Part shown: piece after piece, positions 16,749 through 46,641 of the stretch
How the letters are laid out: each line of letters starts with the position of its first letter
Position numbering within the stretch: the stretch's first letter is position 1
Virus record (IMG/VR): IMGVR_UViG_3300014689_000033
Location: 1-51,762 of that record
Strand: one strand, 5' to 3'
From: an uncultured virus (IMG/VR IMGVR_UViG_3300014689_000033)
Lineage: Monodnaviria > Loebvirae > Hofneiviricota > Faserviricetes > Tubulavirales > Inoviridae
Length of the DNA stretch: 51,762 nucleotides
Program-made: the position numbers and the translations under genes
Notes under the pieces: generated by a model
Databases searched by the model: none
The model's input: the letters and a program-made list of their open reading frames with translations, nothing else
Told to the model about the DNA's origin: nothing

Positions 16749-17141
16749 TTACTTAGCCGCCTTTCCGGCGGGGGCCTTGTCGGCAGCGGCTTGGTCAGCG
16801 GCAGCCTTGTCGGCAGCAGCCTTCTCAGCAGCGGCTTGGTCAGCAGCGGCCTTGTCAGCGGCAGCCTTCTCAGCAGCGGCTTGGTCAGCAGCGGCCTTGT
16901 CAGCGGCAGCCTTCTCAGCAGCGGCTTGGTCAGCGGCAGCCTTGTCGGCAGCGGCCTTCTCAGCAGCGGCTTGGTCAGCGGCAGCCTTGTCAGCAGCAGC
17001 CTTGTCGGCCTTCGCATCGATGACCTCGGCATAGTCCTTCTTGACCAACTGCTTGCCGTGCACGTCGGTGGTATCGAAGGTTTTACCGGGGTCCACGACA
17101 GCACCGCCGATATACAGCGGTTTGAGTGCTTTGAGCTTCAT
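16749..17141 (-). CDS. Capsid-adjacent protein with Ala-rich repeats
   Basis: 46-aa N-domain followed by five [14 protein letters not shown](E/D) units. Confidence 0.85.
16779..17003. repeat. Coding tandem repeat, 15 x 15 bp arranged as 5 x 45 bp
   Basis: Read directly from DNA and translation. Confidence 0.9.
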
Positions 17142-22990: not shown

Positions 22991-23380
22991 TCAGTCCCGG
23001 CCGGTTCGGTCGTGGCGCCGCTTGTTGTCGTGGCGCCGACACAGCCCGCGCACGTTGTCCTCGTCGAGGCCAAGGTCCGGGCGTTCCTTGAACGGCTTGA
23101 TGTGGTCGACCACCACTGCCGGCTCGATGTCGCCCTCTTCCTCACAGTCGACGCACAGCGGATGCATGATCAGGTAGTGATCGCGAAAGCGGCGCCACGC
23201 AACGGTGCTGTAGAACTTGTCCGAGTCATCACGCCGCCGGTTATACCGCTTGTGGGTCTGCTGCCGCATCGCAGCGCGGCGCTCATCGGACTGCGCCTGA
23301 TGGGTCGGGCAATAGCTGCCAGTACCAACCAGAACACCGCACCCCGGATGGCAGCACGGACGCGGCGCGTGATTACTCAT
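22991..23380 (-). CDS. HNH endonuclease (packaging-associated)
   Basis: HPLCVDC...VVDHI...N...LCRRHDN; next to terS. Confidence 0.9.
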   Translation of the reverse strand: MSNHAPRPCCHPGCGVLVGTGSYCPTHQAQSDERRAAMRQQTHKRYNRRRDDSDKFYSTVAWRRFRDHYLIMHPLCVDCEEEGDIEPAVVVDHIKPFKERPDLGLDEDNVRGLCRRHDNKRRHDRTGRD

Positions 23381-23721
23381 CGCCGCCTCACTGGGCTCAA
23401 CGCAGCCCGCCGATCCTGCTGCCGCCGCTCCACGCCATCCCAGCCACCCGGCCGGAACGCGCCGGCCAGGTTGCCGCCGCTCTGCCACACCGCCCAGGCG
23501 AACACCGCCAGCAGCACCACCAGCGGCCATGCCATGGCAGGCACACGCAGCTCGCCGGTCAGGATGTAGATCACAGCAGCGCCCGCGCAGCCCATCACCA
23601 GCATGGCCAGGCACGACACACCGCGCCGGAACCTCGCAGCACCACGGCGATAGGTGAACAGCCGCACGAACAGCACCAGGCAGATGAGGAACGTCACCTG
23701 CGTCAACAGAGCACTAACCAT
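23377..23721 (-). CDS. Putative holin (3 TM)
   Basis: Three hydrophobic helices, GGNLA, basic tail. Confidence 0.75.
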   Translation of the reverse strand: MVSALLTQVTFLICLVLFVRLFTYRRGAARFRRGVSCLAMLVMGCAGAAVIYILTGELRVPAMAWPLVVLLAVFAWAVWQSGGNLAGAFRPGGWDGVERRQQDRRAALSPVRRR

Positions 23722-24079
23722 CCGCGCCTCCGTCACTGATCGATGGCACACCACGTCGGCGGATCGCAGCCAGCGCCAGCGTCACCACCAGCACCGCTGC
23801 ACCGAACGCCGCCGGGCCGGGATAGGCGAACGGGCGAAAGCCCCAGAACTCCGCGTCCACGATGGCCGGCGCAAACTGGTAACCCATCACCGCCGACACC
23901 AGGAAGAACAACAGCCGCTTCCAGATCGGCAGATCATGCGTCGTCGTCACATACACCAGCGCACCCAGCAGCGCGCCGACAGCCGCATCGCCGTTGACGC
24001 CAGCCATGAATCCAGCCAGGCCGGCACCGGCCGCACCTGCCACCACAACGCCTGCCGTGGTGCTCGTTGGCTCAGCCAT
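23714..24079 (-). CDS. Putative holin / antiholin
   Basis: MAEPTST start, several TM segments, first late gene. Confidence 0.75.
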   Translation of the reverse strand: MAEPTSTTAGVVVAGAAGAGLAGFMAGVNGDAAVGALLGALVYVTTTHDLPIWKRLLFFLVSAVMGYQFAPAIVDAEFWGFRPFAYPGPAAFGAAVLVVTLALAAIRRRGVPSISDGGADG

Positions 24080-24102
24080 GCAACGCCTCCAGCGGCACAA
24101 AT

Positions 24103-24132
24103 GAAAAAGGCCCACCGTTACGGGTGAGCCTT
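24103..24132 (-). terminator. tR'-like terminator before holins
   Basis: AGGCTCACC/GGTGGGCCT stem with T-run. Confidence 0.8.
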
Positions 24133-24235
24133 GGAATGGGTGCCCTCTTGCGAGGGCTGGCCTGCCGGGGAACAGGCCGCGACACAGCACGTCGCTCGGC
24201 GGTTATCGCTGCGGGCGCAGCTCTACAACCATGGG
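24103..24235 (-). ncRNA. Putative structured late-leader RNA
   Basis: Three abutting perfect hairpins (loops GUGCUGU, UUCCCCGG, GCAA) then a terminator; 5' end approximate. Confidence 0.6.
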
Positions 24236-24237
24236 CA

Positions 24238-24332
24238 CTTTCTACAGCCGACATGCAACGCCCGCAACCGCCGATTTTTGCAAACGCTGTTCAACACGGT
24301 TGAACACGCTTGAGCACGGTTGAACGCTGTTC
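24238..24332 (-). promoter_or_regulatory. Probable late promoter region with 10-bp phased repeats
   Basis: Four units tcaacacggt/tgaacacgct/tgagcacggt/tgaacgctgt (24291..24330); weak TTGCGG-17-TAGAAA. Confidence 0.5.
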
Positions 24333-24356
24333 GCGCCAAACCATCCCGACGAACGG

Positions 24357-24944
24357 TCATATAGCAGAACCCACTTTCCGCAGGTCCGCCGTCGCCTTCA
24401 CGGCCCGAGCAGCGGCCTTGCGATCAGCCACCCGCTTGCGCTCCGCCCGTGCGTTCTCCCGCGCCACGTCACGTGCAGCCCGGGCGCGCTTCACCGCAGC
24501 CGCATGCGCATCCGTGCCCCGCTCTGCCGATTGCAGCCTGGCCAGCGCCACCGGCCACTCCGCCTGCAGCTCCGCATGCAACTCATCCACCTGCGCACGA
24601 TACGTCCGCATCGAGATACCCAGCCGCGCGCACTGCGCCGACACGGCCACCGCCTGCAGCCCCTGGCAGTAGCGCACATGCGCCAGCCGCTGCAGCACAC
24701 GCCCACGCGATCCGAGGCCCAGCGGCGCATCCTTCGCCATGCCATCCAGCGCCATGCTCACCGCCTGGCTCGCACGGCTGATCGCCACCGCGCACTCCAC
24801 CAGCGACAGGCAGCGATGCCCGCCCACGCCGCCCGGCGTATCGTCACCCATCCGCCCCAGCGGCGAGGCGATGGCCACATCCAGAGCAGGGTTCACAACC
24901 TCACGGCCCCACGCCTGCAACAGCAACTCCATGGCCTCGATCAT
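24357..24944 (-). CDS. Late-gene regulator (Q-like antiterminator or activator)
   Basis: LLQAWG start, HTH-like RLGISMRTY, position before late leader. Confidence 0.65.
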   Translation of the reverse strand: MIEAMELLLQAWGREVVNPALDVAIASPLGRMGDDTPGGVGGHRCLSLVECAVAISRASQAVSMALDGMAKDAPLGLGSRGRVLQRLAHVRYCQGLQAVAVSAQCARLGISMRTYRAQVDELHAELQAEWPVALARLQSAERGTDAHAAAVKRARAARDVARENARAERKRVADRKAAARAVKATADLRKVGSAI

Positions 24945-24954
24945 GCTCTGCCCC

Positions 24955-25258
24955 CCAACCCGGCACAAAACCGGCAACCCAACACAAACCCAACACACTC
25001 AAAACCCTTATAAATCAATGCTTTCAAAGCAACTGTGTTGAGTGTGTTGGGTTTGTTGGGTTTTTCGGTCCTCGCGTAGCAATTTTTTCTCGCCTCATCA
25101 GCCCCGTTCAGTCGTTGCAACAAAACACACGCATGCGCGCGCGCGATGCCAAACCCAACACACCCAACACACACCCCGCAAAGCCCCGCCGTTGCTGGCC
25201 TCTCGCTGTGCTGGGTTCGCAAACCCAACCCAGCACAACCCAACACACCCAACACACA
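24955..25258. repeat. Iteron-like CCCAACAC(A) array, probable replication origin
   Basis: About a dozen direct and inverted copies around an AT-rich spacer, next to primase. Confidence 0.75.
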
Positions 25259-25269
25259 TTCAGTCGTAT

Positions 25270-27972
25270 TCATGCCGCAGCCCCCTTCAAGTGGTCCCAG
25301 CCGTCCACATCCCAGCCCGCCAGCTTCGCCTTCGCCCGCCACCCCGCCACATGCTGGCCAAGCGCAGCTGCGTTCATAGATGGGGGCAGGGAAGAGTCAG
25401 GGTCACTGGGAAAGAAGAAGGCCCCGAAGCGCCGGTTCGCCCCCTCCGTCCAGGGGATCGACCGCGTCTTCTCGACCTCGGAACTGATGAACAGGCTGAA
25501 CTTCGTCTGGCTCATCGCGTGTTCACGGTTGCGCTGGCACCACTCGAGGAACAGCGCATAAAGGTCCGTCGACAGGCACGCGCCCCAGAGCTCGCGCCCC
25601 AGCTCCCCGTGCTGCCACTGATTGAGGAAGGTCTGCCAGCCAGCACGCGATAACGCCACCAGCCGCTGCCGGGCATCCGTGTGCGGTGGCCGAGTGCGCT
25701 CGTTGAAGTCGCCCAGGTCCACATCCAGCAGCCAGCCATAAAGCGCGGCCACCCCACCGTTCGCCAGCTCCGCGCCGATCGCCCGCTGCCGTTCCTCCGG
25801 CAACGTCTCCAAAGGCCACATCACCAGAAAGCGTCGGTCCGACTCACTGATCGGCCACGGCAGGATCTCGTTCGAGAGGAACACCGCATTCATATGGTTG
25901 GCTTCCTCCCAACCATTGATGAACTTCGATTCCATCCGCACCGTCTTGCCGGTGATCAGATGCTTGATCTTGCCCACCTGGTTGTAACGCTGGTCGCGGC
26001 TCACGACTTCCTCGAACACCGCCCAGAGCTTCCGGCTCTGCCAGGCATTGAAGTTCGATTCCAACTGCGTCTGGCCCACCGTCGCCGCATACGGCCCATA
26101 CAGCGCCCCGAGCGTATCGGCGAACAGCAAGCTCTTGCCCGAGCCCTCCATCACCGAATGCATCAGCACAGCCGTGTCCAGCTTCGCGCCTGGGTGCTGC
26201 AGCGGATAGGCCAGCCACTTCACCAGCCACTGCAACGGCGCGTCCTCGTGGTTGCACAGAAACGAGATCAGCCACCGCAGGTTCTCGCACGCCGCGTCAT
26301 CGCGCACCGGCTCAAGCGGCAGCCCCTCGAAGGTGTTGATGTACACCGCCGGGTCCTTCGTCATCGTCGGGTCGAACACGATGTGGTCAACATCCACTGT
26401 CCGCCGCTCGGCGCTGTTCAGCCACAGCGCATAGGCATCGCCCAGCGCCATCTTCACCGCGCCTTCCGGAATGCGCCGCTTCTTCTCGCGGTCCCACACA
26501 TCCTTTGTCCCGTCGATGTACACATAGCGCTCGATGGGCGTCATCCCCAGCGCAGTGGCCTTCTTGCCGGCCATCCGACGCGCCTGCTCCAGTTCGCGCA
26601 CCGTATCCGCGCCGAACAGCTTCTTCGCCACGTCATCCAGCCAGACCTTGGCGAGCGGCTTGCTCACCAGCGCCTCGAACGCGGTCTTCTTCATCACCGC
26701 TTTCTTGTCCTGGTCCCAGACCTGCGTCGTGCCCTCCACCAGCGCGAAGCGCCGCAGGATCTGCTCACTGGTGAAGCCCACCCCCTGCCCCCCGGTGTCG
26801 GAGGAGCCGGCCGGCGCAGCGGCTTCGTCAGCGGATGGGGTCGGGGAAGGCTTGCCAGCAGCAACAGCCGCGTCGAGCTGCGGCGCTACCGCCTCCAGCC
26901 CCCAAGCCACATGCACATCGTTCCAGTCCTGCCCTGCCTCGCCTTCGGCCGGCTGCGTCGGGAAGGCCGCAATGCCGCCCACCTCACCCGCCGCCGCTTC
27001 CGCCTTCTTGCGTCCCGGGTTGCCGGGCTTCGTCGGGTCATCGTCACCGGCAACCACCAGCAGCGCATCCGGACATTGCGCCACCAGGTCACGCGCTACC
27101 GCCGGCATGTTGCCGGAGTCCAGCGCCATCGCTACCGGCCAACCCTTCGCCATATGCACACTGGCAGCCGTCGCATAGCCCTCGGCCTCGCCGATCACCG
27201 TCGCGCCTTCCAGCTCACCCAGCACATGCCGGCAACCCGCCTTGCGCCCGTACTTCGGGAACAGCTTCGTGCCCTGCTCGTTGATCGCCTGCAGGCTCCA
27301 CAGCTTGCCCGCCGCATCGCGCAGCGGAATGGCTATGGTTCCCTTCTTGAACATCAAAAAGCTGATCGAATCCGGCCGGGGCGAAGGCAGGTTGGCGAAG
27401 AACTCCCGCGTCTCGCTGCCCACCCACACGTCGCAGCGCTGCCGCTCGTCATCGATGGCCAGCACAACCGTGTAATGGAAGTAGCCCACACCAAAAGCCC
27501 CCACCTGCTTGCGTTCCAGGTAGGGGCTTTCGCCTTGCGGCTTGCAGTGCTTGGTCCAGATCAACTCGCAGGCAGCAGCCACGGCTTCGCGCATCACCTG
27601 CGCCCTCGCCTCGTCCGCTTCGATCTCCGCCTGCCGCACTGCGCGCCGCGCTTCGGCCTCGGCATTCAGCCGGCGTTTCTCCTCGGCAGTGATCGGCTCC
27701 CGGCGTGGCCGCCAGCCCTCGTCCTTCGCCAGCTTGATCACCGTGCCCATGCCCGTGCCCGCCTTGCGGAACGAGCGCCACACCGTCTTCGCATCCGCCG
27801 TGCTGTAGCTGTCAGCGGCGGCACTCCAGGTATCCCAGGCATCGAACCCGTTATTGCCGAACTCCGCCTTGATGCCCATGCCCACCTGCAACCAGGTATC
27901 GCGGTTATCGGCGTCGATGTACTGCAGTAGCTCGGGGAGATCGGCCAGGGTGAGAGGTACGCGCTCAACCAC
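25270..27972 (-). CDS. Primase-helicase (PriCT-2, Toprim, SF3-type helicase)
   Basis: W.QVGMGIK (PriCT-2), EGYATA and GDDD (Toprim), EGSGKS Walker A; GTG start inferred. Confidence 0.9.
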   Translation of the reverse strand: MVERVPLTLADLPELLQYIDADNRDTWLQVGMGIKAEFGNNGFDAWDTWSAAADSYSTADAKTVWRSFRKAGTGMGTVIKLAKDEGWRPRREPITAEEKRRLNAEAEARRAVRQAEIEADEARAQVMREAVAAACELIWTKHCKPQGESPYLERKQVGAFGVGYFHYTVVLAIDDERQRCDVWVGSETREFFANLPSPRPDSISFLMFKKGTIAIPLRDAAGKLWSLQAINEQGTKLFPKYGRKAGCRHVLGELEGATVIGEAEGYATAASVHMAKGWPVAMALDSGNMPAVARDLVAQCPDALLVVAGDDDPTKPGNPGRKKAEAAAGEVGGIAAFPTQPAEGEAGQDWNDVHVAWGLEAVAPQLDAAVAAGKPSPTPSADEAAAPAGSSDTGGQGVGFTSEQILRRFALVEGTTQVWDQDKKAVMKKTAFEALVSKPLAKVWLDDVAKKLFGADTVRELEQARRMAGKKATALGMTPIERYVYIDGTKDVWDREKKRRIPEGAVKMALGDAYALWLNSAERRTVDVDHIVFDPTMTKDPAVYINTFEGLPLEPVRDDAACENLRWLISFLCNHEDAPLQWLVKWLAYPLQHPGAKLDTAVLMHSVMEGSGKSLLFADTLGALYGPYAATVGQTQLESNFNAWQSRKLWAVFEEVVSRDQRYNQVGKIKHLITGKTVRMESKFINGWEEANHMNAVFLSNEILPWPISESDRRFLVMWPLETLPEERQRAIGAELANGGVAALYGWLLDVDLGDFNERTRPPHTDARQRLVALSRAGWQTFLNQWQHGELGRELWGACLSTDLYALFLEWCQRNREHAMSQTKFSLFISSEVEKTRSIPWTEGANRRFGAFFFPSDPDSSLPPSMNAAALGQHVAGWRAKAKLAGWDVDGWDHLKGAAA

Positions 27973-28186
27973 GGCGCACCCCCGCACTCATCTTGTCCGC
28001 GAACGCCTGGCAGTCGGTGCACATCCGGCAACCCTTCACCGCGTCACGCCGGGCCTGCGGAATCTCGGCGCCGCATCCTTCGCACTCGGTCAGGCTTTCG
28101 CCCTGGTACTGCACACGGCTTGCGATGATGCGCTGCAGCTCCTCGTCCTGCTCCCGCTGGGCACGCTCGATCAGATGTTCATCCAT
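27965..28186 (-). CDS. TraR/DksA C4 zinc-finger protein
   Basis: CEGCG.EIP..RR.A..GC.MC.DCQ. Confidence 0.9.
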   Translation of the reverse strand: MDEHLIERAQREQDEELQRIIASRVQYQGESLTECEGCGAEIPQARRDAVKGCRMCTDCQAFADKMSAGVRRG

Positions 28187-28664
28187 GGCGCTGCTCCCCC
28201 ATGGCCTGCTCCGCACCGGCCACGATCCCGAGAATCTCGCTGATCATCCGGTTCGCATGGCCGCGCAGCGTCTCGACCTCGTGCGCCTCCCATACGTTGT
28301 CTGCGGCGCCGTCATGCAGGCTGCCAACGAACTCGCCTTCGGCCTGCAGCAGCTTGCCCAGCGCCTTCAGCGCATCGCGCGTGGCCGGTACCGGCGTCGG
28401 CTTGAAGCTCACAACCCCATACACCTGCTCGAACCACGCGAGCACGGCCGGGCCCTGCACGAGCGCAATCACGCGCTCCACATCGTCCGCATGCAGGTGG
28501 TGGTCAGGGTAGGAACAGGAGAGGCGCTTCTGGAATGGGCCATACGGCTCTTCCAGAATTGCGCAAACGGCCTTGTGGCCGCCACGGATCGCCTCGCGGG
28601 CGTCCTTGTCGATAGCCGCTTCCAGAGTGGTAAGCGGCCCGTGTTCAAGCGTAGTAGCGCGCAT
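28179..28664 (-). CDS. CII-like regulatory protein
   Basis: Downstream of cro; HTH-like N-terminus, LHDGAADN.W...E motif. Confidence 0.7.
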   Translation of the reverse strand: MRATTLEHGPLTTLEAAIDKDAREAIRGGHKAVCAILEEPYGPFQKRLSCSYPDHHLHADDVERVIALVQGPAVLAWFEQVYGVVSFKPTPVPATRDALKALGKLLQAEGEFVGSLHDGAADNVWEAHEVETLRGHANRMISEILGIVAGAEQAMGEQRHG

Positions 28665-29004
28665 TGGTAGTAAACCCCGCTGGCTACCATAGCCATAGGC
28701 CAGGGCAACGCCCTATCCTATGGCCACAGCAGCAAAAACCCCGGTCGTATACGTGCTGTGTCCACCGGGGTTGCTGTTGAGGGAGTCAGGGGTGGTACCC
28801 GTCTCCCGGACCGCTGGGTCAAGGCCGCTTTACTTTGGTGAGTGGGCGCCTTGATTCCAGCCTCTACATCCACCTGCCGCCATGGCGTCAGGTTTGTTGC
28901 TCCTGGCCCTTGGGCCTGCCAGCTCCGGTCTGCTGATGAGGCTCCCGGAACCGGCCCCCGCCGATACTGAAACTGTGCTGTGTCCGGCGGGGTTGAAATC
29001 GAAA
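28665..29004 (-). promoter_or_regulatory. Structured 340-bp cro-cII leader with terminator-like hairpin
   Basis: Several inverted repeats; CCCCGGT/ACCGGGG (28739..28770) followed by five T on the minus strand. Confidence 0.6.
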
Positions 29005-29244
29005 TCAGGCCGCTGTCTTACGCGGCGACGCAGCGCCCCTTAGCTCAGCAGCATCGAACGGGCAGCCATTTGCAGCAGCTGCCGCCGCTAGGCGATCTAC
29101 GTAATCTGTTTCGCCTGTGTATTCGGTACGCGGGAGCGAGTCAGCCGAAAGCCATTTGTAAACGGCCCGCACACTGACGCCGCAAACCTTCGCTGCTTTC
29201 GGCGCCCCTCCAACGCATTCAATCGCCTTCCTAAGTGTGGCCAT
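29005..29244 (-). CDS. cro: Cro-like repressor
   Basis: 79-aa HTH (AAKVCGVSVRAVYKW), divergent from cI. Confidence 0.85.
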   Translation of the reverse strand: MATLRKAIECVGGAPKAAKVCGVSVRAVYKWLSADSLPRTEYTGETDYVDRLAAAAAANGCPFDAAELRGAASPRKTAA

Positions 29245-29269
29245 CAGACCCTCCGAGGCGGCCTAAAAG

Positions 29270-29341
29270 TGAACTTGAGGTACATAGTATGACGGAACTG
29301 AAAGTACATGCAAGTTCATGCGATGGTGAACTCATGGTTCA
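29270..29341. promoter_or_regulatory. OR-like region, three operators
   Basis: (T/G)GAAC-N5-GT(A/T)CA at 29270, 29294 and 29327. Confidence 0.8.
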
Positions 29342-30086
29342 GCAACCCGAAGAAATGCGGTCCGCCTTTGTGATCCGCTTAAAGAAAGCCGCCGAGTACG
29401 CCAATACCCCAGCGTGGGGCCTTGGCGCGCGCCTCGCATCCATCACAAACCGCACACCTAAAGCTGCGAGCAAGTGGCTGAATGGTGAATCGATGCCTAG
29501 CCGCGCCTCCATGCAGGCAATCGCTGAGGCATTTAAGGTTCGGCTGGAATGGCTTCAGTACGGCATTGGCCTGATGATTGATGGAAGCGAAACCTCGTAC
29601 CCAAGAGCTATCGCGCCCGCCCGGCAGATCCGGGAAAACGTGAACGTATGGCCGGTGAAGCCACCCCACCGCGAAATGAAGGAATACCCATTGATCAGCT
29701 GGATCGCTGCTGGGTGTTGGGCTGAGTCTTGCGACAACTACCAGCCCGGCGATGGCCAGGAATTCATTGCTTCTACCGAGAACGCAGGCGACCACGGATA
29801 CTGGCTTGAGGTCAAAGGCGACTCAATGGTCCCGCCTGACGGTTTTGCCTTCAATGACGGCACGCGAATTCTCGTACGGCCCGAGGGCTTCGATCTGATC
29901 AGTGGCAAGCTCTATGTGGCAAAACTGATCGAAACAGGCGAAACCACCTTTAAACAGTACGTACGCGACGCCGGAATTGAGTACCTAAAACCGCTTAACC
30001 CCACCTATCGAACCATCGTGATTGACGAGAATGTGCGAATCATTGGCCGCGTGATTGATGCACGACCCCCAAAAAGTCTCCTGTGA
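29334..30086 (+). CDS. cI: CI-like repressor (HTH + S24 peptidase)
   Basis: ASKWLNGE HTH, AG cleavage site, VKGDSM and TFK catalytic motifs; start uncertain. Confidence 0.93.
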   Translation: MVQQPEEMRSAFVIRLKKAAEYANTPAWGLGARLASITNRTPKAASKWLNGESMPSRASMQAIAEAFKVRLEWLQYGIGLMIDGSETSYPRAIAPARQIRENVNVWPVKPPHREMKEYPLISWIAAGCWAESCDNYQPGDGQEFIASTENAGDHGYWLEVKGDSMVPPDGFAFNDGTRILVRPEGFDLISGKLYVAKLIETGETTFKQYVRDAGIEYLKPLNPTYRTIVIDENVRIIGRVIDARPPKSLL

Positions 30087-30094
30087 ACCCAATA

Positions 30095-30137
30095 TGTACT
30101 TTAGGTTCTTGACTCAAGTGAACCTGTAGTACATATT
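30095..30137 (+). promoter_or_regulatory. PL/OL-like promoter with two operators
   Basis: TTGACT-17-CATATT; operators at 30095 and 30119. Confidence 0.8.
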
Positions 30138-30170
30138 TGCCGCGTACCCACTCACCACGGGATCGCGACA

Positions 30171-30368
30171 ATGGACACAGCACAGCACAGCAGCACCCGC
30201 TGCCCGGTCTTTCTGCACCCGGCAGCAGCATCCAACCCCTTCACCGTGCGCCGCATCGAGCGTGAAACCGGCCTGATTGCACAGGTCACCTTGCGCACGG
30301 CTCAACTCAAGCGCCACACCCGCCCCACCTTCGAGAGCTTCGGCCCGTTCGGAGGCGACTGCGCATGA
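30171..30368 (+). CDS. Hypothetical early protein
   Basis: First ORF after PL; ATGA coupling to next gene. Confidence 0.75.
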   Translation: MDTAQHSSTRCPVFLHPAAASNPFTVRRIERETGLIAQVTLRTAQLKRHTRPTFESFGPFGGDCA

Positions 30369-31198
30369 GCACCTTCTCCCTCACCAGAGGCAGCGAAGCA
30401 GCCCTAGGCATGCTCGCCAGCCAGGCCGGCCACGAAATACTGCTGCTCACCCAGCCTGCCCGCGAACTGCGCGCCGAGCTCAGCATCGAGCCCTTCACCA
30501 GCGACAGCGGCGATCAGCTGCTGGCCGTGCTGTTCATGCGCGAGCAGCGCCACAGCATGACCCTCCAGCGCAACGACGGCGCCAACGTCCAGCACCTGGC
30601 CGATTGGGTCGAGGCCGCCGCCAACGGCACGCTGGATACGGCAGAGGCCATTCCGCAGCGAGCATCACCTGCGGCGCTGCTGCCATGCAGCAAGTGCAAC
30701 GGGGCAGCAATCGGCTACGACTACTCGCCTTCCGGGAGCGCATTTATCCACGGGGTGAGGTGCCGCCATCGCACCTGCCAGGCGGTCGAAGGCGCTGAAA
30801 CCGAGGCCGAAGCGCACGATGCCTGGAACGCTATTCAGCTCAAGCAGCTGGTAGAGCCGAGCGATCTGGCTGCGGCTACCGCTGCCTTCAGCGCCGCCGC
30901 ACATGAGCTCAATGCTCATAACGGGCAACAGCCTATCCGCATGCCTCCCCGCGCCGACGTCACGCAGGGCGATGGTTTCGATTCGCAGCTCGCGGAAGCC
31001 TACAACACCGCCCTGGACGAAGTGGCCCGCTTGAACGCCAACCCCATCGCGCAGACCGCCCCGCAGCCGGACCAGAGCATGTTGGTCGAGATGATCGATG
31101 CGGCAATGTTGGAGATGCGAAATGTCGCCCCTCCGCTTCGCCGGAGTGAGTGCGAGCGGCTTATCCGCGCCGCCGTGGCCACCAGCCCAAAAGCCTGA
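30365..31198 (+). CDS. Early protein with internal Lar-like Zn-finger
   Basis: LLPCSKC...VRC...C...EA..AWN. Confidence 0.7.
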   Translation: MSTFSLTRGSEAALGMLASQAGHEILLLTQPARELRAELSIEPFTSDSGDQLLAVLFMREQRHSMTLQRNDGANVQHLADWVEAAANGTLDTAEAIPQRASPAALLPCSKCNGAAIGYDYSPSGSAFIHGVRCRHRTCQAVEGAETEAEAHDAWNAIQLKQLVEPSDLAAATAAFSAAAHELNAHNGQQPIRMPPRADVTQGDGFDSQLAEAYNTALDEVARLNANPIAQTAPQPDQSMLVEMIDAAMLEMRNVAPPLRRSECERLIRAAVATSPKA

Positions 31199-31209
31199 GG
31201 CACGCCACC

Positions 31210-31485
31210 ATGAACCGCACCCTCGACCAGGCCGCCGCCGTGCTCGGCATCGGCCCGCGCAAGCTGCGCGCGCGCATGCGCGAGCTTGGCCTGCTCAACC
31301 ACGCCGGCGAGCTGATCAGCAGCGAGCGCGGCCAGGGCCGGCTGTTCGTCGACACCCGCAGCCGCTGGAACCCGGCCATCAACAGCTACACGCACTACGG
31401 CGTCGTTATGGCCACCGAGGCCGGCATCGCCTGGCTGGCCGATCAGCTGGGCATCACCGTCACCAAGAAGGACGCCGCCGCATGA
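31210..31485 (+). CDS. Antirepressor KilAC-domain protein
   Basis: AA.VLGIGPRKL...LRELG...TEAGIAWL pattern. Confidence 0.7.
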   Translation: MNRTLDQAAAVLGIGPRKLRARMRELGLLNHAGELISSERGQGRLFVDTRSRWNPAINSYTHYGVVMATEAGIAWLADQLGITVTKKDAAA

Positions 31486-31847
31486 CCACCTCTGCCACCC
31501 AACACGCGATCGGCGCGCTCAAGCTCACCAGCCTGCATCTGGACCACCCAAGCGTGGTACCGGCCAGCGTGCTGCGCGGCGCCTGCTCGGAGGCCATCGC
31601 CCACCTGCAAGCCAACCAGCCCCACGCGGACGACCTCGGTCGCCTTTGGTGCGCGCTGTTCGCCGTGCTGCCGGCAGGCTACCTGCCTCACGTCACGCTC
31701 ACCACGGAGCAGGGCGCACCGTTCGCCTGCGTCATCACAGATGGCACCGGCAGCGTGGTCGACCGGCAGGCCGGCAAGACCATCGAAGGCATCACCGAAC
31801 TGATCCGCCTACGCCTCCCGGCGGGGCGCGGGGAGGTGCTGCCATGA
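31482..31847 (+). CDS. Hypothetical protein
   Basis: ATGA-coupled on both sides. Confidence 0.75.
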   Translation: MTTSATQHAIGALKLTSLHLDHPSVVPASVLRGACSEAIAHLQANQPHADDLGRLWCALFAVLPAGYLPHVTLTTEQGAPFACVITDGTGSVVDRQAGKTIEGITELIRLRLPAGRGEVLP

Positions 31848-32101
31848 AGCCACAACCGCAAACCACGCTCGACACCCTGCGCAGCCGCTACCCCGGCAAC
31901 TACATCACTGCCGAGCAGCTGCTCGCCGACCACCTGCCGCACATCACCACGGTCAAGCACCTGCGCCGCAAAGTCCGCGAAGGCCAGCTCAACCTCAAGA
32001 TCCGGCAGCTCGACCCCAGCTCCAACCGCAGCCCCTGGGTCATCTACCTACACGATCTGGCCGACTGGCTGGATCAAACCGCCGCCGCGCAAGCGGCATA
32101 A
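31844..32101 (+). CDS. PrtN-like DNA-binding protein
   Basis: S.RSPWVIYLHDLADWLD motif. Confidence 0.65.
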   Translation: MKPQPQTTLDTLRSRYPGNYITAEQLLADHLPHITTVKHLRRKVREGQLNLKIRQLDPSSNRSPWVIYLHDLADWLDQTAAAQAA

Positions 32102-32142
32102 CCCGCCCCCACCAAGGGCAACCAAAAGAGGCACAGCACGCC

Positions 32143-32490
32143 ATGAAACCCACAGATACCAGCGAGTTCATCAACTCCCTCAACGCCAGCGTATTCGCCC
32201 AGCAGGTCGGCCGCGCGCTCTCCGACGTCGCCGCCGGCGTGGTCGACCACGGCAAGCCCGGCGAGGTAACGCTCAAGTTCAAGCTCAAGCAGATCGGCCA
32301 GAGCAACCAGGTCACCGTCAGCCACACGCTGGACTTCGTGCAACCCACCAAGCGCGGCAAGAAGCGCGAGGACACCTCCCTCGACACGCCCATGTACGTC
32401 ACCGAGAACGGTCTTGAGCTGTTCCAGACCAGCCCGACCGACCAGATGTTCACCCGCGAGGAAGCGCCGGTTAAAGCCCGCGAAGTCTGA
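32143..32490 (+). CDS. Conserved phage protein (YfdP-like)
   Basis: Precedes DUF2303 gene; strong codon bias. Confidence 0.75.
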   Translation: MKPTDTSEFINSLNASVFAQQVGRALSDVAAGVVDHGKPGEVTLKFKLKQIGQSNQVTVSHTLDFVQPTKRGKKREDTSLDTPMYVTENGLELFQTSPTDQMFTREEAPVKAREV

Positions 32491-32531
32491 GCCGCATCAC
32501 CAAGCCCCACTCACCAAAAGGAAGACACAGC

Positions 32532-33362
32532 ATGTCGCTGAGCAAAGAAGCCATCCAACACATCGAGTCCCAGGCCATCATCGCCGCCGCCAAGCCTATC
32601 GTCATCGACGGCGGCACGTCCGTGGCCGTGCTGCCGGAAGCTGTCAGCCTGCGCAGCCTCGAGCAGTACCAGCCCCTGCGCGATCGCTTCCGCGGAACAC
32701 TGCGCACTCATTCGCTGCGCGACTTCACCAAGTACGTCGCCGCCCATGACAACGCCAACCAACCCCGCCCGGGTGGTTTCATCGATCAGGACGCCATGTC
32801 CGCCACCGTCATCTTCAACCTGGGCGAGCCCGACCACGCCGGCCACGGCGATGACGTAGCCGTGCTCACCCTCAAGCCCACCGCCGCCTATTCCGCGCTG
32901 CAAGGCGTCGTCGGCCGGGCGCTCAGCCAGAAGGAACTCGCCGAATGGCTGGAGGACTGGCTGCCCAACCTCGAGGCGCAAGACGGCGAGACGACCCTGC
33001 AGATGCTGCAGGCCATCAACGCCGTGCGCCGCATGGTCATCAAGGCCACCAGCCAGCGCGACAGCAACGTCGGCGACTTCTCCGCCAGCCGCTCGGCCAT
33101 GGACGAGATCGAGGCCAAGAGCCAGGACACCCTGCCCTCCGCCTTCATCTTCACCACCGTGCCGTTCGAAGGGCTGGACGTGGCAGATATCAAGCTGCGC
33201 CTGTCCGTCATCACCGGCCGCGACGAGCCACTCCTGAAACTCCGGTGGGTCGGGGAGGAAGCCCAGCGCGAAGCCTTCGCCCAGGAATTCAAGGACGTGC
33301 TCGAGCAGGAAGTAGGCGGTCTGGTGCCGCTCACCATCGGCACCTTCTCCCTCGGTAAATAA
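32532..33362 (+). CDS. DUF2303 / YfdQ-family protein
   Basis: SLEQY...RFRG, LSQKELAEWLEDW, PFEGL. Confidence 0.85.
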   Translation: MSLSKEAIQHIESQAIIAAAKPIVIDGGTSVAVLPEAVSLRSLEQYQPLRDRFRGTLRTHSLRDFTKYVAAHDNANQPRPGGFIDQDAMSATVIFNLGEPDHAGHGDDVAVLTLKPTAAYSALQGVVGRALSQKELAEWLEDWLPNLEAQDGETTLQMLQAINAVRRMVIKATSQRDSNVGDFSASRSAMDEIEAKSQDTLPSAFIFTTVPFEGLDVADIKLRLSVITGRDEPLLKLRWVGEEAQREAFAQEFKDVLEQEVGGLVPLTIGTFSLGK

Positions 33363-33419
33363 CCACCACCAACAACCTGCCGGCCTCACCAGCCGGCGGG
33401 CTCAAACGGGACACAGCAC

Positions 33420-33905
33420 ATGAACTTCACCACCATTCAGATCATCGCCTTCATCGGCGTAGTCGCAGGCATGGCCATCGTGTTCGGCCTCGGCTTCTAT
33501 GAAGGCCTGCGTAAGGGCAAGCGCGAAGCCTTCGACATCGGCTACCAGCGCGGCCTGCACGCCCACCGCTATGAACTCACGCAGGCCCGCCGCGACATCG
33601 AGTCGGCCAAGCACAGCCTCACCATCAGCCGACTCAACGCCGCCCAGGCACTCGAAGCCACTACCGTTGAGCTGGACGATTGCCGCGCCAAGCTCGCCAA
33701 CCTGCAAACCCGCGTCATCACCGAAGACGACGCCAACCAGCTCGTGGCCATGGCCGACAAACTCAGCCTGGCAGCCAACGTCTTCGCAGGCATGGGCTCG
33801 CACGACCAGGCCACCACCGCCCGCAAGCTCTCCACCAGCGCCCGCGCCCTGTTCGACCGCTACTGGCAAACCCTGCCGGTGATGGAAGTGGAGGTGATGG
33901 CATGA
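33420..33905 (+). CDS. Membrane-anchored coiled-coil protein
   Basis: N-terminal TM helix; codon bias. Confidence 0.8.
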   Translation: MNFTTIQIIAFIGVVAGMAIVFGLGFYEGLRKGKREAFDIGYQRGLHAHRYELTQARRDIESAKHSLTISRLNAAQALEATTVELDDCRAKLANLQTRVITEDDANQLVAMADKLSLAANVFAGMGSHDQATTARKLSTSARALFDRYWQTLPVMEVEVMA

Positions 33906-34414
33906 GCCAGTCGACCGTATGCCTGCGCGGGCGCCGCGCTGTGCCCCTGCAGAACATCATCGCCACCAGTGGCGAGTCCTTCATCTGCGTTGGCTACAAC
34001 CACCCCAAAGACCGCCGCGTTCCGCAGGATCGCTTCTGCCACTGCTGGAAGAACGACTCGGTAGACGAGCACAGCCACTGGGACCGCCGCGACATCACCG
34101 ACACCATGTCAGTGATGGCTACGGCGCTGAGCATCGACGCCAACATCATGGCCTCGGAGAAAATGACCGAAGCCCAGATGAACAAGGCTGACCTCACCGC
34201 CCAGCAACCCGAGGAAGACCTGCCACCAGACCCCGCCGTTGCCGCCATCGCCTACGCGCTGGACCTGCGCACCGAGGAACCGATGGAGTTCCTGCGGCTC
34301 TGGAACCAGGGCGACTTCGACGAATGCCGCAAGTACTGGCCAGACGCCCCGGACGAGGTCTACATCGGCGCCGATCCGCTGTTCGAGCCGGCAGCGCAGG
34401 AGGTCCAGCCATGA
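33902..34414 (+). CDS. Hypothetical protein
   Basis: ATGA-coupled on both sides. Confidence 0.75.
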   Translation: MSQSTVCLRGRRAVPLQNIIATSGESFICVGYNHPKDRRVPQDRFCHCWKNDSVDEHSHWDRRDITDTMSVMATALSIDANIMASEKMTEAQMNKADLTAQQPEEDLPPDPAVAAIAYALDLRTEEPMEFLRLWNQGDFDECRKYWPDAPDEVYIGADPLFEPAAQEVQP

Positions 34415-40608: not shown

Positions 40609-40923
40609 TTACCTCCACCGCTCGATGATTTGCTTGAGCACCTTGCGCTCATCTGCCGTCAGGTCGTCCTTCTCGTTCTTCGGATAGATCAGCAGTAATG
40701 CGATCTGCGAAGCCGCCGTGAAGTGGTAGTAGATGACCCTGGACCCGCCTCGCTTGCCGTGACCGCCAGACGCAACGCGAACCTTGCGAATGCCGCCAGT
40801 ACCTTCAATCACATCGCCCATGTCCGGCCGGTCAGCCAGTTGCCGCTGAAACTCCGCGTAGCTGTCATCGCTAAGCAGATCCCGCAGGCGCTTGGTGAAG
40901 ATCGGTGTCTCGATAAAGATCAT
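40609..40923 (-). CDS. higB: HigB/RelE-family toxin
   Basis: FIETPIF, GTGGIRKVR, GKRGGSRVIYY, YPKNEKDDL. Confidence 0.9.
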   Translation of the reverse strand: MIFIETPIFTKRLRDLLSDDSYAEFQRQLADRPDMGDVIEGTGGIRKVRVASGGHGKRGGSRVIYYHFTAASQIALLLIYPKNEKDDLTADERKVLKQIIERWR

Positions 40924-40967: not shown

Positions 40968-41975
40968 TTACTGGCTGGCGAGCGGTAACGTGATGCCGGC
41001 CAACGGTCCTAACCTGATCGCATCGTTCAAATGCTCAGGCGCGAGGTGGGCATACCTCATCGTCATGTTCAGCGACGCATGGCCCAGGATCTCTTTCAGC
41101 GTCACGATATGCCCACCGCCCATGATGAAGTGAGCTGCGAACGTGTGGCGCAGGATGTGGCTTGCCTGTCCGCGTGGTGGCTTGATCGAGGTCGAGAGCA
41201 GGACCAGCCGAAACACGCCAATGCAGTTGGTGAACGGCCCGTAGGTTTGCCAGTGCTTCTTGATCGCCGCCACCAGCTCGGGCGTCACTGGGACCATCCG
41301 CACGCGCTTCGACTTGGTATTGGCAAACACCAGGGCGTTGCCTCGAATCCGCTCCGGTCGAAGCGCTTGAGCCTCACCCCACCTCGCCCCGGTCGCCAGA
41401 CAGATCCGCGCCACCATCGCCGGATGTGGAGACGTGGTCCGCGCCTGGAGTGCATCGAGCAGTTCGGATATCTGCGGTTTGGTCAGGTAGGCCAAGGGGC
41501 GCTCCTGCAACCGAACCGGACGAATACGGGTGAAAGGACAGGGATAGTCGATTACGTCGAGTTTATGCAGCTCGTTGTAAACGGCTTTCAGGTAGCCGAG
41601 GCGATTGTTCGCCGTCTTGCCGGTGACGCCAGCTGACATCCAACGCGCGCGTGTGGCGGCGACCTTCGCGCCATCGACCATACGAGCTATCGGATCGCCC
41701 ATCGCCTTTGCACACGCCCGCAGGATCGCCACACGCCGAACGCCATCGGAGAGCGAGACGCCGTGAAGGTCGAACCACAGCTCGACCAGCTCTGACAGCC
41801 TGCGTTTATCCTTTGGCCGCGGTGCCCAATCGTTCGATTCGCTGCACTTGGCTCGACAGGTCGCCTCGAAGCGCATTGCCTCGGCCTTGGTCTTCAGCGT
41901 CTTGCGAAACCGCTTGCCCTTGACCGGCTCAACATCAACCCGCCAGCGACCGTCAGAGAGCTGCTGGATCGCCAT
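40968..41975 (-). CDS. Pf-type tyrosine integrase
   Basis: TGARWGE, HILRHTFA, ILGH, RYAH. Confidence 0.95.
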   Translation of the reverse strand: MAIQQLSDGRWRVDVEPVKGKRFRKTLKTKAEAMRFEATCRAKCSESNDWAPRPKDKRRLSELVELWFDLHGVSLSDGVRRVAILRACAKAMGDPIARMVDGAKVAATRARWMSAGVTGKTANNRLGYLKAVYNELHKLDVIDYPCPFTRIRPVRLQERPLAYLTKPQISELLDALQARTTSPHPAMVARICLATGARWGEAQALRPERIRGNALVFANTKSKRVRMVPVTPELVAAIKKHWQTYGPFTNCIGVFRLVLLSTSIKPPRGQASHILRHTFAAHFIMGGGHIVTLKEILGHASLNMTMRYAHLAPEHLNDAIRLGPLAGITLPLASQ

Positions 41976-43252
41976 CAGACCGCTCTGCCCCATCGAACGT
42001 GGCGTTCTTGAAGCAACGTTTTGATGTGCTTGTACAGATCACGCTCGCTCATGTCCTTGGCGGCATAGTGGTCACGAATGACCGGCCAGCATTCCCAATC
42101 CTTCAGTCGATCAAATGCGGTTTTAGCGCCCACTCGCTCCCGTGCCAGCAGGCTTACGAAGTTTCCCAGGAATAGCTCCACGTTCTTGCCCGAGAAGCCC
42201 CGTGAGGTCTTGTAGTAGCGCTTGTATTCCGTTTCATCGACCAGGGAATCGACCGCCACGTCGACCCGCACGTCATCACGCATCAGCGTCCAGATCGGTT
42301 CGTATTGCCCTGGGCGGTGCAGCAACTTGAACTGGCACAGCCCGTAGCGCCACAGGCCGTCCAAATGGGCGGAGAACGCCGCAAACGAATCCGTCTCAAT
42401 GGCCTCGCCGGTCTTGGCACTGATCGACCCGCTGGCGAACTGCTGGATGACCGAATGGTGGTAGCGCAGCTCGACCCGCCACACGTCCGCCTCAGGATCG
42501 TAGTTATCAGGGTCGGTCGAATCGAACGAATCCCGGCGACGCCAGACGCTTTCCCAGAAGTCGAGCTTATCGGTCGCGCGGGCCTGTTCGGTTTTGTTGT
42601 AGATGCAGAGCTGCACGCCACCAGCAGAACCGAACATGGATGTTTCGCCACGACCGTAGACGCTGGACTTGGTCGCCCAGTTGATTTCCTTGATACCCGA
42701 GATATCCCGGTGCGTCCGCGCGCGACAGTGCAGGCGTGCCACCAGATCCACCGGTGGCTTCCAGCCCTGGAGATCCAACGCCAGATGAACAGCGCATTGG
42801 TTGCGTTCGCGGTGTGTCATCACGGCTGCGGCGTAGTAGTCCATCCGCTCTTGAAGACGCTCAGGCGACAGCGCGTCGATGGCGTGCGGTGACACTTCGA
42901 TTTTCAGATGCGGGCCGATGTTCTCGAGCTTGGCGTTGAAGTTCTTGATGAGCAGGATGAAGCCGAGGTCGGCGTTCTGCAGCTTGTACTGGTACCCCGA
43001 GTCCCGCCCTACCCGTCCGGCGTGCCAGAACTCCCCGGCAAACTCGACCATGACGCCCGGTTTCTCGAACAGCGCCATGATTTCCGGGCGGATCAGTCCT
43101 CGGTACAGCTGGCGGACCGTATCGACGCCGCAACGCAGCAAGCGAACGCCCGACAGGTCAGTCAGCTTGGCCGAATGGCTATCGAAGAACAGTCGCCCGG
43201 TTGGGGTTTCCTGAAAGTTCTGATCAACACGAATTTGGTCTTTAACGCTCAT
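41975..43252 (-). CDS. Pf replication initiator
   Basis: Between zot and int; GVDTVRQLY, YNKT, VWRVELR. Confidence 0.85.
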   Translation of the reverse strand: MSVKDQIRVDQNFQETPTGRLFFDSHSAKLTDLSGVRLLRCGVDTVRQLYRGLIRPEIMALFEKPGVMVEFAGEFWHAGRVGRDSGYQYKLQNADLGFILLIKNFNAKLENIGPHLKIEVSPHAIDALSPERLQERMDYYAAAVMTHRERNQCAVHLALDLQGWKPPVDLVARLHCRARTHRDISGIKEINWATKSSVYGRGETSMFGSAGGVQLCIYNKTEQARATDKLDFWESVWRRRDSFDSTDPDNYDPEADVWRVELRYHHSVIQQFASGSISAKTGEAIETDSFAAFSAHLDGLWRYGLCQFKLLHRPGQYEPIWTLMRDDVRVDVAVDSLVDETEYKRYYKTSRGFSGKNVELFLGNFVSLLARERVGAKTAFDRLKDWECWPVIRDHYAAKDMSERDLYKHIKTLLQERHVRWGRAV

Positions 43253-43302
43253 TCTCTTCTGCTCCAAATTGCAACGAATTGACACTGTTCAGTTGGGTTT
43301 AT

Positions 43303-43395
43303 CTGACGTGTTACAGGGACGTCAGCGCGCGCGTTTGCACGCCGGCTCGTGCCTCGCCGCGCGTGCAAAGAGCGCGGAGCGCACGCGCGCTGACG
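43303..43395. other. Hairpins: candidate rolling-circle origin / packaging signal
   Basis: CTGACGT-9-ACGTCAG and long GTCAGCGCGCG...CGCGCGCTGAC fold in the zot-rep gap. Confidence 0.55.
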
Positions 43396-43399
43396 GTCA

Positions 43400-44584
43400 T
43401 CACCACAGAAATTTCCCCTTCTCATAGGGCACCACGACCACGGACGAGCCTTTCGGGGCTGACTGCAGGCCGCTGGCGACCGCCTGTTCGAGTGCCGGAG
43501 GCGGACTGCCGGCGTGCATCGGCGCTTGTGGCGGTTCGGGGTCGGGCTTGGTGTCGTCGAAGTAGCCGTTCTGCACGACCGACATGCAGAAGCCGAACGA
43601 CACATCCAGGCGCGTGCCTTGCTGGGTGTTGCATCGACAGCCCGTCAGCCCTTCATCGCTGTCGCCGACTTGCATGCGCTTGTAGTTGCGGGCGATCAGC
43701 TCGCGGTCGGTGGTGGCGATGCACACAGGCTTGGGGAAGGTCTGCGGCTCGGTCAGTGCGTCATACACCGGCGCCGATGCCGGCAGGTCCTGCACCCTGG
43801 GGACACGCTTGCCCAGGTACTGCTCGACGGTGAGCGGCGCGGCCTGTTCGGCATCGGCACTGGGTCGGATGAACGCTCCGACCGTATCCCGCACCTGATC
43901 GACCATGCTCCCGGCCGGCGCGCTGGTAGCCGTCGCGGCCTGCGCTTTCTCGGCGGCGTAGCGCTCATAGGCGCGATAAACGAGGATGCCGGCACCGAGG
44001 ATCACGCACAGCGCCAAGATGAACTTGGTCGGCACCTTGGCCTGGAAGTGGTGCTTGGCGTTGGTGCTGGTGTAGGCGCCGAAGTAGCGCTTATCCAGGC
44101 GCAGCGACTTCTTGTCGGCATCCTTGAAGCTGGTTTTCAGCTCGACCTTTTCCACCACCACTTCCGACTCGAAGCGCAGCAGCTGGGCGGACTTGAAGAC
44201 GCGCCAGTAGTGAATGTGCGTGTTGCACAGCCGACGCAGGTGCACATCCAGATAGCGCGGGTCCTGGGTGACGAGGTGAACTTCGTGGCCCTGATGGCGC
44301 ATCGTCTCGAAGCGGGTGATGTGCTCCGGTGGCCGCGCCCGTGGATCGCGTGCGCCGAACCAGCCCTGCGCTTCGTCCACCACGATGATCGAGTCGTTCG
44401 GCAGCTCAAACCACTTCTCAGGATCTTCAAACTCGAACCACTGCGCTTGCAGCTGATCGGGCTTCAGGCCGTTGATGTTGTGGAAGTAGACGACACGGCC
44501 TTCGGCATGGGCCTTCTGATCGACTTCGCGAATGGTGTTGAGGGTCTTGCCATGACCGGGCTTGCCGGTGCGGATAACGAGCAT
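43400..44584 (-). CDS. zot: Zot-like assembly ATPase (pI)
   Basis: GKPGHGKT, VVDEAQ, RH.G...LVTQ, TM helix. Confidence 0.95.
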   Translation of the reverse strand: MLVIRTGKPGHGKTLNTIREVDQKAHAEGRVVYFHNINGLKPDQLQAQWFEFEDPEKWFELPNDSIIVVDEAQGWFGARDPRARPPEHITRFETMRHQGHEVHLVTQDPRYLDVHLRRLCNTHIHYWRVFKSAQLLRFESEVVVEKVELKTSFKDADKKSLRLDKRYFGAYTSTNAKHHFQAKVPTKFILALCVILGAGILVYRAYERYAAEKAQAATATSAPAGSMVDQVRDTVGAFIRPSADAEQAAPLTVEQYLGKRVPRVQDLPASAPVYDALTEPQTFPKPVCIATTDRELIARNYKRMQVGDSDEGLTGCRCNTQQGTRLDVSFGFCMSVVQNGYFDDTKPDPEPPQAPMHAGSPPPALEQAVASGLQSAPKGSSVVVVPYEKGKFLW

Positions 44585-44596
44585 GACGGCGCCTCC

Positions 44597-44923
44597 TTAG
44601 GCTTCGATGGAGGTGCCGCCCGGCTTGTGCCAGACCTGATTGCGACGGCGGTCGGTGGCCTTGTCGATCCCGGCGAGCATGAAGCGCGTTGAGATGGCGG
44701 CGAAATACAGGTTCACCACCACATCGAACTTGGCCAGGCCGAGAATCCCCTGGATGACCGGACCCACATCGCCCATTAGGCCGAACAGGTAGTCCTGGGC
44801 TTGGCCGATGATCATGTTGAAGCCGATATAGGAGACGAAGCCGAACCCGATCATTTTCAGCACCATCTTCACCAGCGGGCCGAGGATGATGACGAGCATC
44901 TGCACGATGAATAGAAACTGCAT
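44597..44923 (-). CDS. Minor coat protein pVI-like
   Basis: Hydrophobic 108 aa between pIII and zot. Confidence 0.85.
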   Translation of the reverse strand: MQFLFIVQMLVIILGPLVKMVLKMIGFGFVSYIGFNMIIGQAQDYLFGLMGDVGPVIQGILGLAKFDVVVNLYFAAISTRFMLAGIDKATDRRRNQVWHKPGGTSIEA

Positions 44924-46275: not shown

Positions 46276-46277
46276 CG

Positions 46278-46349
46278 TTACACCCGCCCAAAAAACACGA
46301 GATAAAACGCCAGGGTGGTGAGGATCAGGACGTACAGTTCGTAGCTCAT
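46278..46349 (-). CDS. 23-aa hydrophobic peptide MSYELYVLILTTLAFYLVFFGRV
   Basis: Hand-translated; AGGGA SD; stop 2 nt before pIII ATG. Confidence 0.55.
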   Translation of the reverse strand: MSYELYVLILTTLAFYLVFFGRV

Positions 46350-46367
46350 GGCGTTTCCCTAGAAGAG

Positions 46368-46390
46368 AAAACCCCGCCGGAGCGGGGTTT
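46368..46390 (-). terminator. Terminator after coaB
   Basis: AAACCCCGC/GCGGGGTTT stem with T-rich tail. Confidence 0.85.
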
Positions 46391-46424
46391 GTTTGCTTCG
46401 GCACATGCAGTGCGCGGTTCCCGG

Positions 46425-46631: not shown

Positions 46632-46641
46632 GGTTGATACC

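Follow-up and report, generated by a model that had tools for sequence, protein, structure and literature searches.

A predicted late-leader RNA of Pseudomonas lambdoid prophages carries an invariant seed complementary to tags at early gene starts

Results

Gene order of the prophage

The window (the whole 51,762-nt stretch of DNA analysed here) contains a lambdoid prophage of Stutzerimonas type that closely resembles Pseudomonas phage vB_PstS-pAN (96% over the region); this phage was also the sole blastn match of the region among 50,697 phage records. The minus strand carries, in this order, cro, a cII-like gene, DksA/TraR, primase, a 195-aa gene, the late-leader element and two holin genes (Phage_holin_8 and Phage_holin_3_7), and the plus strand carries the early-left operon, whose pL-like promoter lies next to cI (29277-30086). 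The 195-aa protein had no Pfam match, gave an ESM feature match of 0.91 to the antiterminator-Q cluster and was about 30% identical to a regulator encoded beside the repressor in a tailocin cluster; from its position and the feature-level match we infer that it is Q-like. A small early-left gene downstream of the first tagged gene (31210-31485) has weak similarity to the KilAC antirepressor domain, the window copy of this KilAC/ANT-like gene (E 0.005) falling below the cut-off and its homologues above it. Elsewhere in the window, an ORF behind the capsid gene (16749-17141) carries tandem KAAAD/E repeats, and the prophage is adjoined by a second element (40968-48700) with integrase, replication-initiator-like, Zot/ATPase-like and coat-like ORFs, assigned by eye, which is presumably a filamentous (Pf-type) prophage; a small RelE-like ORF lies beside it (40609-40923).

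Table 1 Positions of the late-leader, cro-cII and early-left features in the window.
Feature	Position	Strand	Remarks
Intrinsic terminator (tR'-like)	24099..24132	-	Compensatory pair changes in alignment
RNA-2, predicted late-leader RNA of ~130 nt	24100..24232	-	Start inferred 7 nt behind -10; ends at terminator
Two further hairpins	24142..24178	-	C-rich loop; GCAA loop
Seed hairpin	24179..24195	-	Seed B' GUGCUGUGUC at 24190-24181
Late (pR'-like) promoter, predicted	24239..24267	-	-35 TTGCGG, 17 nt, -10 TAGAAA
Q-like antiterminator gene (195 aa)	24357..24944	-	Putative; between primase and holins; phrog_4300
Leftward (pRE-position) promoter-like site	28690..28719	+	TAGCCA, 18 nt, TATCCT
RNA-1, predicted two-seed antisense RNA of ~170 nt	28726..28898	+	B' 28753-28762, A' 28836-28845; from fold
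RNA-1 terminator-like hairpin	28872-28898	+	
Extra hairpin behind cro	28956..28992	not assigned	B copy in loop 28975-28984; some relatives only
pL-like promoter of early-left operon	30109..30137	+	
Tags of first early-left gene (65 aa, phrog_13491)	30148..30188	+	A 30148-30157; B 30174-30183 in codons 2-4; partial tandem
Tags of yfdP-like gene (phrog_204)	32106..32139	+	A variant; B 32130-32139
Tags of yfdQ (DUF2303)	32507..32538	+	A 32507-32516; B 32524-32538
Tags of 161-aa gene	33385..33419	+	A 33385-33391; B 33410-33419, abutting AUG

Architecture of the late leader

The element ahead of the holin genes has a pR'-tR' layout, namely a promoter behind a Q-type gene (Q by position and feature match) and a terminator before the lysis genes. 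The promoter frame of the window was missed by a consensus scan; the layout of the transcript predicted from it, designated RNA-2, was kept across 40 aligned leaders. A previous sequence-only reading had described three abutting perfect hairpins followed by a terminator. All three were recovered on the minus strand (24195-24179, 24178-24159 and 24157-24142), the last two separated by one base rather than abutting, and the terminator was found behind them (24132-24099). In the first hairpin, the UGCUG of the seed was unpaired with a probability of 0.95-1.0 on folding. The hairpin with the C-rich loop has a counterpart of variable sequence in relatives, and the one with the GCAA loop was present only in the window's lineage. 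The fold of the leader had a z of -2.58, with 3 of 200 shuffles equally good. The suggested search against Rfam yielded no c4-type or other family for the leader: no covariance model, including c4 (RF01695), matched the window or eight related loci at the gathering score, and the E-value matches were chance-level only. No description of RNA-2 was found in the literature, where subscription journals or supplementary sRNA lists may hold it as an unnamed transcript.

Among sequencing runs, the raw reads of X21 and X24 included none that fell on a relative, and contigs of X1 and X2 spanned the region with no separate short piece, contigs being unable to show a short RNA. Contig depth in run X1 across 23000-34200 was 25-54 over early and late genes and about 2 over cI, a pattern that induced or lytic phage might give, in a run that may be DNA.

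The seed is invariant in otherwise divergent leaders

We assembled 80 viral and 79 genome loci around the primase gene, plus named phages, and kept 151 loci with at least 1400 nt behind the primase, many of them near-copies. A late-promoter pattern defined independently of the seed matched in 136 of the 151, and 129 of these promoter-anchored loci (many near-copies) had a GCUGUG core 39-55 nt behind the inferred start. TGCTGTG was invariant across 40 hand-picked leaders that carry the seed, while their mean column identity was 48%, and the stems around it differed by lineage (GCGAC/GUCGC, GUGAC/GUCAC, CGCAC/GUGCG, CUCAC/GUGAG, GCCAG/CUGGC, GCCU/AGGC and GCAC/GUGC). The leader 7-mer whose complement was most enriched in early transcripts overlapped the seed in at least 88 of 107 loci. 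Over 98 leaders, the mean unpaired probability of the core was 0.54-0.67; RNAalifold on the leader alignment returned the terminator and an alternative pairing only, with no seed hairpin and part of the seed paired elsewhere. Constrained folding that forced the loop open was not counted as evidence, and the model R1, built on a poor consensus structure, served only to find copies (13 of 151 genomes).

The seed was mutated in six intact-looking prophages (L069, L070, L108, L109, L127 and L158). In one prophage (L197 and L096, G003:C49), the late leader is displaced on a scale of ~13 kb by inserted genes and the seed is mutated, and L144 has a tRNA-like sequence at the expected leader position.

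Early gene starts carry the complement of the seed

At least six copies of GACACAGCA had been claimed for the window, against fewer than one expected, and the count held (6 versus 0.61 expected, with 0 of 100 shuffles reaching 6), one copy being that of the leader and five lying elsewhere. The reported motif sites were all found again at 30174, 32130 (as a GGC variant), 32524, 33410, 28754 and 28976; the tandem described at 30174 is present as an 8-mer repeat, with the full GAC in the first copy only. A motif count in a single window is post hoc, a worry removed by the same CACAGCA enrichment in relatives: CACAGCA was the top 7-mer on early sense strands (716 sense versus 30 antisense, in 110 of 111 loci) and ranked first of 140 same-composition permutations (median 84.5). 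This motif, referred to as tag B, occurred in 116 of 977 distinct early start windows, in 32 of 3182 windows inside early genes and in 1 of 1294 late start windows, 82 of 122 copies standing at -8 to AUG. Copies of the tag followed by ATG numbered 0-3 in each of five host genomes, near the control count of 0-1.

Tag B was retained at 95 of 101 homologous starts of the first early-left gene, at 70 of 73 yfdP-like starts and in all 38 detectable homologues of the 161-aa gene, and was absent from prtN-like (0/111) and yfdR-like (0/42) starts. The yfdQ tag, computed to pair over 15 bp (one G-U) with the RNA-2 hairpin across the AUG, is one evolutionary gain in the window's lineage: 18 of the 19 loci that share the window's leader type have it, and none of 48 others examined has it at the AUG; a similar yfdQ site with a different leader type (L052) lies outside these counts. 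One tag or none was found in 12 of 111 seeded loci, and some seedless prophages retained tags. The wobble spectrum at start windows had one dominant change, of a kind that coupled stop-start junctions produce as well. When 31 more distant loci were scanned for 8-mers without bias, tag B and its leader complement emerged in five, and the Halomonas tag described below was missed. Two simpler readings of the motif were ruled out, namely a palindromic operator (the arms vary while the loop is fixed) and an optimal SD-AUG spacer (copies are also present in codons 2-4 and in a non-coding loop). Taken as a comparative pattern, late-leader seed and early tags are real, widespread and strongly selected, and their function is predicted.

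The seed is lost where early genes are lost

A seed-blind promoter search of 151 genomes returned 17 copies, 11 with and six without the seed. All 11 seeded copies were in prophages, ten with a primase in reach and the eleventh with tagged early genes, and none of the six domesticated copies carried the seed. Four of these six, representing one lineage, are prtN-repressor-Q-tail clusters beside an autotransporter esterase, devoid of replication or early genes. Such tailocins retain the promoter, the Q-like gene and the terminator but not the seed, and by gene content they resemble the R-type syringacin, for which a repressor and a divergent gene have been reported to be needed for production (PMC4542187). 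At L269, L287, L288 and L290, tailocin clusters use this late promoter together with a homologue of the Q-like gene. Stand-alone late-promoter copies ahead of a small zinc-finger-like ORF (L284 and L285) suggest a wider regulon.

When loci were anchored on the Q-like protein instead (23 of 401 genomes), the seed directly followed Q in 18 and did not in three, the remaining two being cut by a contig end or carrying an insertion. The seed-mutated prophages L108, L109, L127 and L158 had 0-1 tags, and L070 and L139 two each. PA0613-family loci, tried as a second tailocin control, proved to hold a different gene without this leader and were uninformative (0 of 10). The core proposal of the sequence-only reading, a pR'-type leader with a loop antisense to a tag at early starts, is upheld for what is here a predicted RNA by a seed that is invariant, loop-placed and lost with the early operon; its conservation, strand, position and co-loss can be read directly from the genomes compared.

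A second two-seed RNA is predicted in the cro-cII interval

Two copies of the motif in the cro-cII leader had been placed in hairpin loops and regarded as further targets. Folding confirmed their position in loops, but a conserved promoter precedes them on the other strand, and they are most likely part of a second antisense RNA, designated RNA-1. The order on the strand opposite pR is promoter, B' loop, A' loop and a hairpin with a U-rich tail. Of 124 loci, 118 had the promoter pattern TAGnnn-17/18-TAnnnT no more than 67 nt ahead of the B' loop, compared with 62 of 26000 control windows; the pattern was derived from the same loci in which it was counted, and the sites comprised nine different -10 hexamers and 70 different spacers. 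No Rfam match was obtained for RNA-1.

The A' loop has a counterpart in a second early motif, tag A (CTCACCA; CUCACCA in the window copies of Table 1), which occurred 549 times in sense and 24 times in antisense orientation on early transcripts, an A-like motif being present at most 40 nt upstream of 192 of 331 B tags. No conserved antisense to tag A was found in the late region of Pseudomonas loci. The A' core varies (GGUGAG, GGUCAG or GGUAAG) jointly with the A tags, with 1.60 A'-A tag complements against 0.59 after permutation (31 clusters; 0 of 20000 permutations as high). Because the promoter frame is conserved and A' and B' co-vary with the tags, the cro-cII copies, which are also present on the pR transcript, are best read as RNA-1 seeds and are probably not plain targets. 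RNA-1 would be an unannotated two-seed RNA gene at the pRE position and probably the chief partner of the early tags; it is arguably a stronger finding than RNA-2. Directly behind the 28754 hairpin, TGCTGTGG stands on the pR strand (28722-28731) and could pair with the B loop in cis; this site was found in 19 of 111 loci, mostly of the window's lineage.

Co-variation of the seed flanks with the tags

With the core invariant in Pseudomonadaceae, no core-level compensatory change links RNA-2 to the tags, and only the flanks were testable. The mean extension of B tags with RNA-1 was 4.0 versus 3.3 after permutation (0 of 20000 permutations as high), and with RNA-2 it was 1.88 versus 1.80 (p 0.11), the total extension with RNA-2 not reaching significance in either test (p 0.08-0.11). 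Pairing at -1/+1 with the cognate RNA-2 slightly exceeded the permuted values (p 0.004 and 0.03; 32 clusters, early-left tags only), and also did so with the cro-cII copies counted as targets (p 0.0006-0.003; 23-43 clusters), in permutations that ignore ancestry while flank type is strongly clustered on the CII tree. The late RNA is not supported as the main partner of the tags, as the flanks extend further with the cro-cII RNA; RNA-1 alone could account for the tags.

Among 19 newly fetched regions, all 16 that were seeded had at least three sense tags, and forward prediction of the flanks failed in eight of the 16 (at -2 in L251-L254; at -1 in L257-L259 and L262). One locus (L268) has tags and the late seed and no B' in its cro-cII interval.

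Related arrangements in Halomonas-type phages

In Halomonas-type late leaders, the complement of tag A lies behind the first terminator in 10 of 15 hand-picked loci. At L164 (13430-13460), L167-L174 and L195, the first late terminator is followed by a hairpin containing CCGUGGUGGG, which is antisense to the early tag CCCACCACGG of the same phage.

The seed is constant across repressor types

A layer of immunity had been proposed for the late-leader RNA. Across 130 seeded loci, CI was at least 80% identical to that of the window in two, less than 45% identical in 53 and without a match in 75. Immunity in the sense of P1 c4 is not supported: seed B is unchanged while the repressor changes, and so it is no determinant of immunity specificity.

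Discussion

To our knowledge, many temperate phages make leader RNAs from their late promoters, and most of these have no known role. The lambda 6S RNA is described as having no known function, StxS as an Hfq-bound regulator from the pR'-tR' position, and pR' RNAs as constitutive (PMC7547250); 6S was reported at similar levels in the lysogen and in lytic growth, with one early-operon partner in RIL-seq (10.1101/2024.10.31.621285). The predicted RNA-2 resembles both in being a short RNA between the Q gene and the lysis genes with an intrinsic terminator at its end, and differs from them in that it is predicted to target several early genes of the phage that encodes it, which keep a tag for the purpose, and in sharing its seed with a second phage RNA. 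A comparable layout, in which a Q-like antiterminator acts on a promoter followed by an intrinsic terminator and holin genes, is reported for AlpA/alpB of P. aeruginosa (PMC7969949). No function of the alpB leader RNA was found in the literature as accessible to us.

The antisense RNAs c4 of P1/P7, CI of P4 and CA of N15 are reported to act by short loop-target pairing at early-gene translation starts (PMC12197685). From their sequences, the two seeds of RNA-1 and the A...B tags would work like c4, and here too the controlled operon includes a KilAC/ANT-like gene. The c4 and CI RNAs are processed from the transcript they control, and their seed differs between immunity types. In contrast, RNA-1 and RNA-2 have separate predicted promoters, RNA-2, encoded behind its own at a distance of 6-9 kb from the tags, has one seed (B') only, no conserved A' having been found downstream of the primase; seed B is constant across immunity types, and the c4 covariance model matched neither the window nor the eight related loci. 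Judged by these features, RNA-2 is like StxS by origin and like c4/CI by its predicted pairing, and falls outside c4 itself. Lambda OOP RNA and the transcript from pRE run leftward through the cro-cII region and are antisense to pR mRNA. The predicted RNA-1 would likewise run leftward over cro-cII, antisense to pR mRNA, but its loops complement distant early-left starts, so that unlike OOP it would also act in trans.

We favor, with a probability of roughly 0.6, a reading in which RNA-2 is a second source of the shared seed that represses early-left translation, providing leak control and a later shut-off; its transcription, pairing, sign and timing are predictions. By analogy with lambda pR'/6S and StxS, the late promoter would fire without Q and transcription would stop at the terminator, yielding an RNA of ~130 nt. 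Its UGCUG loop would start pairing with the CACAGCA that the first early-left gene, yfdP, yfdQ and the 161-aa gene carry in their ribosome footprints, pairing would extend to 8-15 bp, initiation would be blocked, and the untranslated mRNA would presumably then be cut short by polarity. The first source of the seed would be RNA-1, transcribed leftward out of the cro-cII interval and carrying two seeds, whose B'...A' succession matches the A...B arrangement of the tags. This RNA would be fully antisense to the pR transcript and should thus be cleared when pR fires. RNA-2 would not be antisense to that transcript. Like pR' RNAs in general, it should be expressed constitutively, in a dose that grows with the number of genome copies, so that it would damp early leak in the lysogen and aid early-left shut-off later in lytic growth.

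The better co-variation of the tags with RNA-1 would also be expected if RNA-2 paired through its seed with the pR transcript, at the B loops of the cro-cII leader, or acted as an activator, leaving the early-left tags to RNA-1 alone. Five loci with cro-cII variants are, on our reading of the sequences, G-U compatible if the pR-sense copy is an RNA-2 target, and on the pR strand the hairpin that contains the 28754 copy has five U behind it; that U run is, however, absent from other groups, the variants at L108, L110, L124 and L127 fit the role of a source instead, and the yfdQ site, in the window's lineage only, fits the RNA-2 hairpin over 15 bp and better than it fits RNA-1 (-31.9 versus -22.4 kcal/mol). 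We regard this alternative as unlikely. We are more skeptical still that the seed serves the late leader in cis, in pausing, Q loading, processing or the stability of the mRNA, or is a relic of an RNA-1 loop, its match to the tags being incidental. The weak flank co-variation of RNA-2 and the six intact-looking prophages with mutated seeds would agree with this, but the four of these with 0-1 tags (L108, L109, L127 and L158) do not, nor do the tailocins, which dispense with the seed while keeping promoter, Q-like gene and terminator. A relic would not be invariant in leaders whose mean column identity falls to 48%, and in the Halomonas-type late leaders it is the complement of the other tag that is carried (10 of the 15 hand-picked loci).

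CACAGCA might instead be a protein-binding site, in DNA or as the mRNA site of a translational regulator, with the late copy an inverted site and no pairing by RNA-2. One binding protein would also yield an invariant core with clade-specific flanks, and genus-wide invariance could reflect a host factor. Such a site would hardly be strand-polarized 716:30 among early copies and yet inverted in the late leader, nor fixed at -8 to AUG inside operons; it is the asymmetric loop that is conserved and the palindromic arms that vary, the tag followed by ATG is about as rare in the five host genomes (0-3 copies) as the control (0-1), and the core of the sister tag A changes jointly with its antisense loop. 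We therefore hold a protein site to be improbable.

What distinguishes the repressive reading of RNA-2 is that it comes with named predicted targets, a genus-wide invariant seed, a natural knock-out in the tailocins and isolated phages (vB_PstS-pAN). If it is true, a late-to-early RNA feedback would be added to the lambdoid switch, together with a second unannotated RNA at the pRE position. More speculatively, and with the odds in our view against it, lambdoid phages of Pseudomonadaceae and Halomonadaceae might run a two-RNA relay on one tag set, in which RNA-1 locks the early genes until pR transcription destroys it and RNA-2 re-locks them as genome copies rise. Given that seed B is fixed across repressor types, the late-leader RNA of a lysogen would, under such a relay, also damp heteroimmune relatives. 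The relay, if true, would constitute an RNA timer from late to early genes and would offer a general function for 6S-type leader RNAs.
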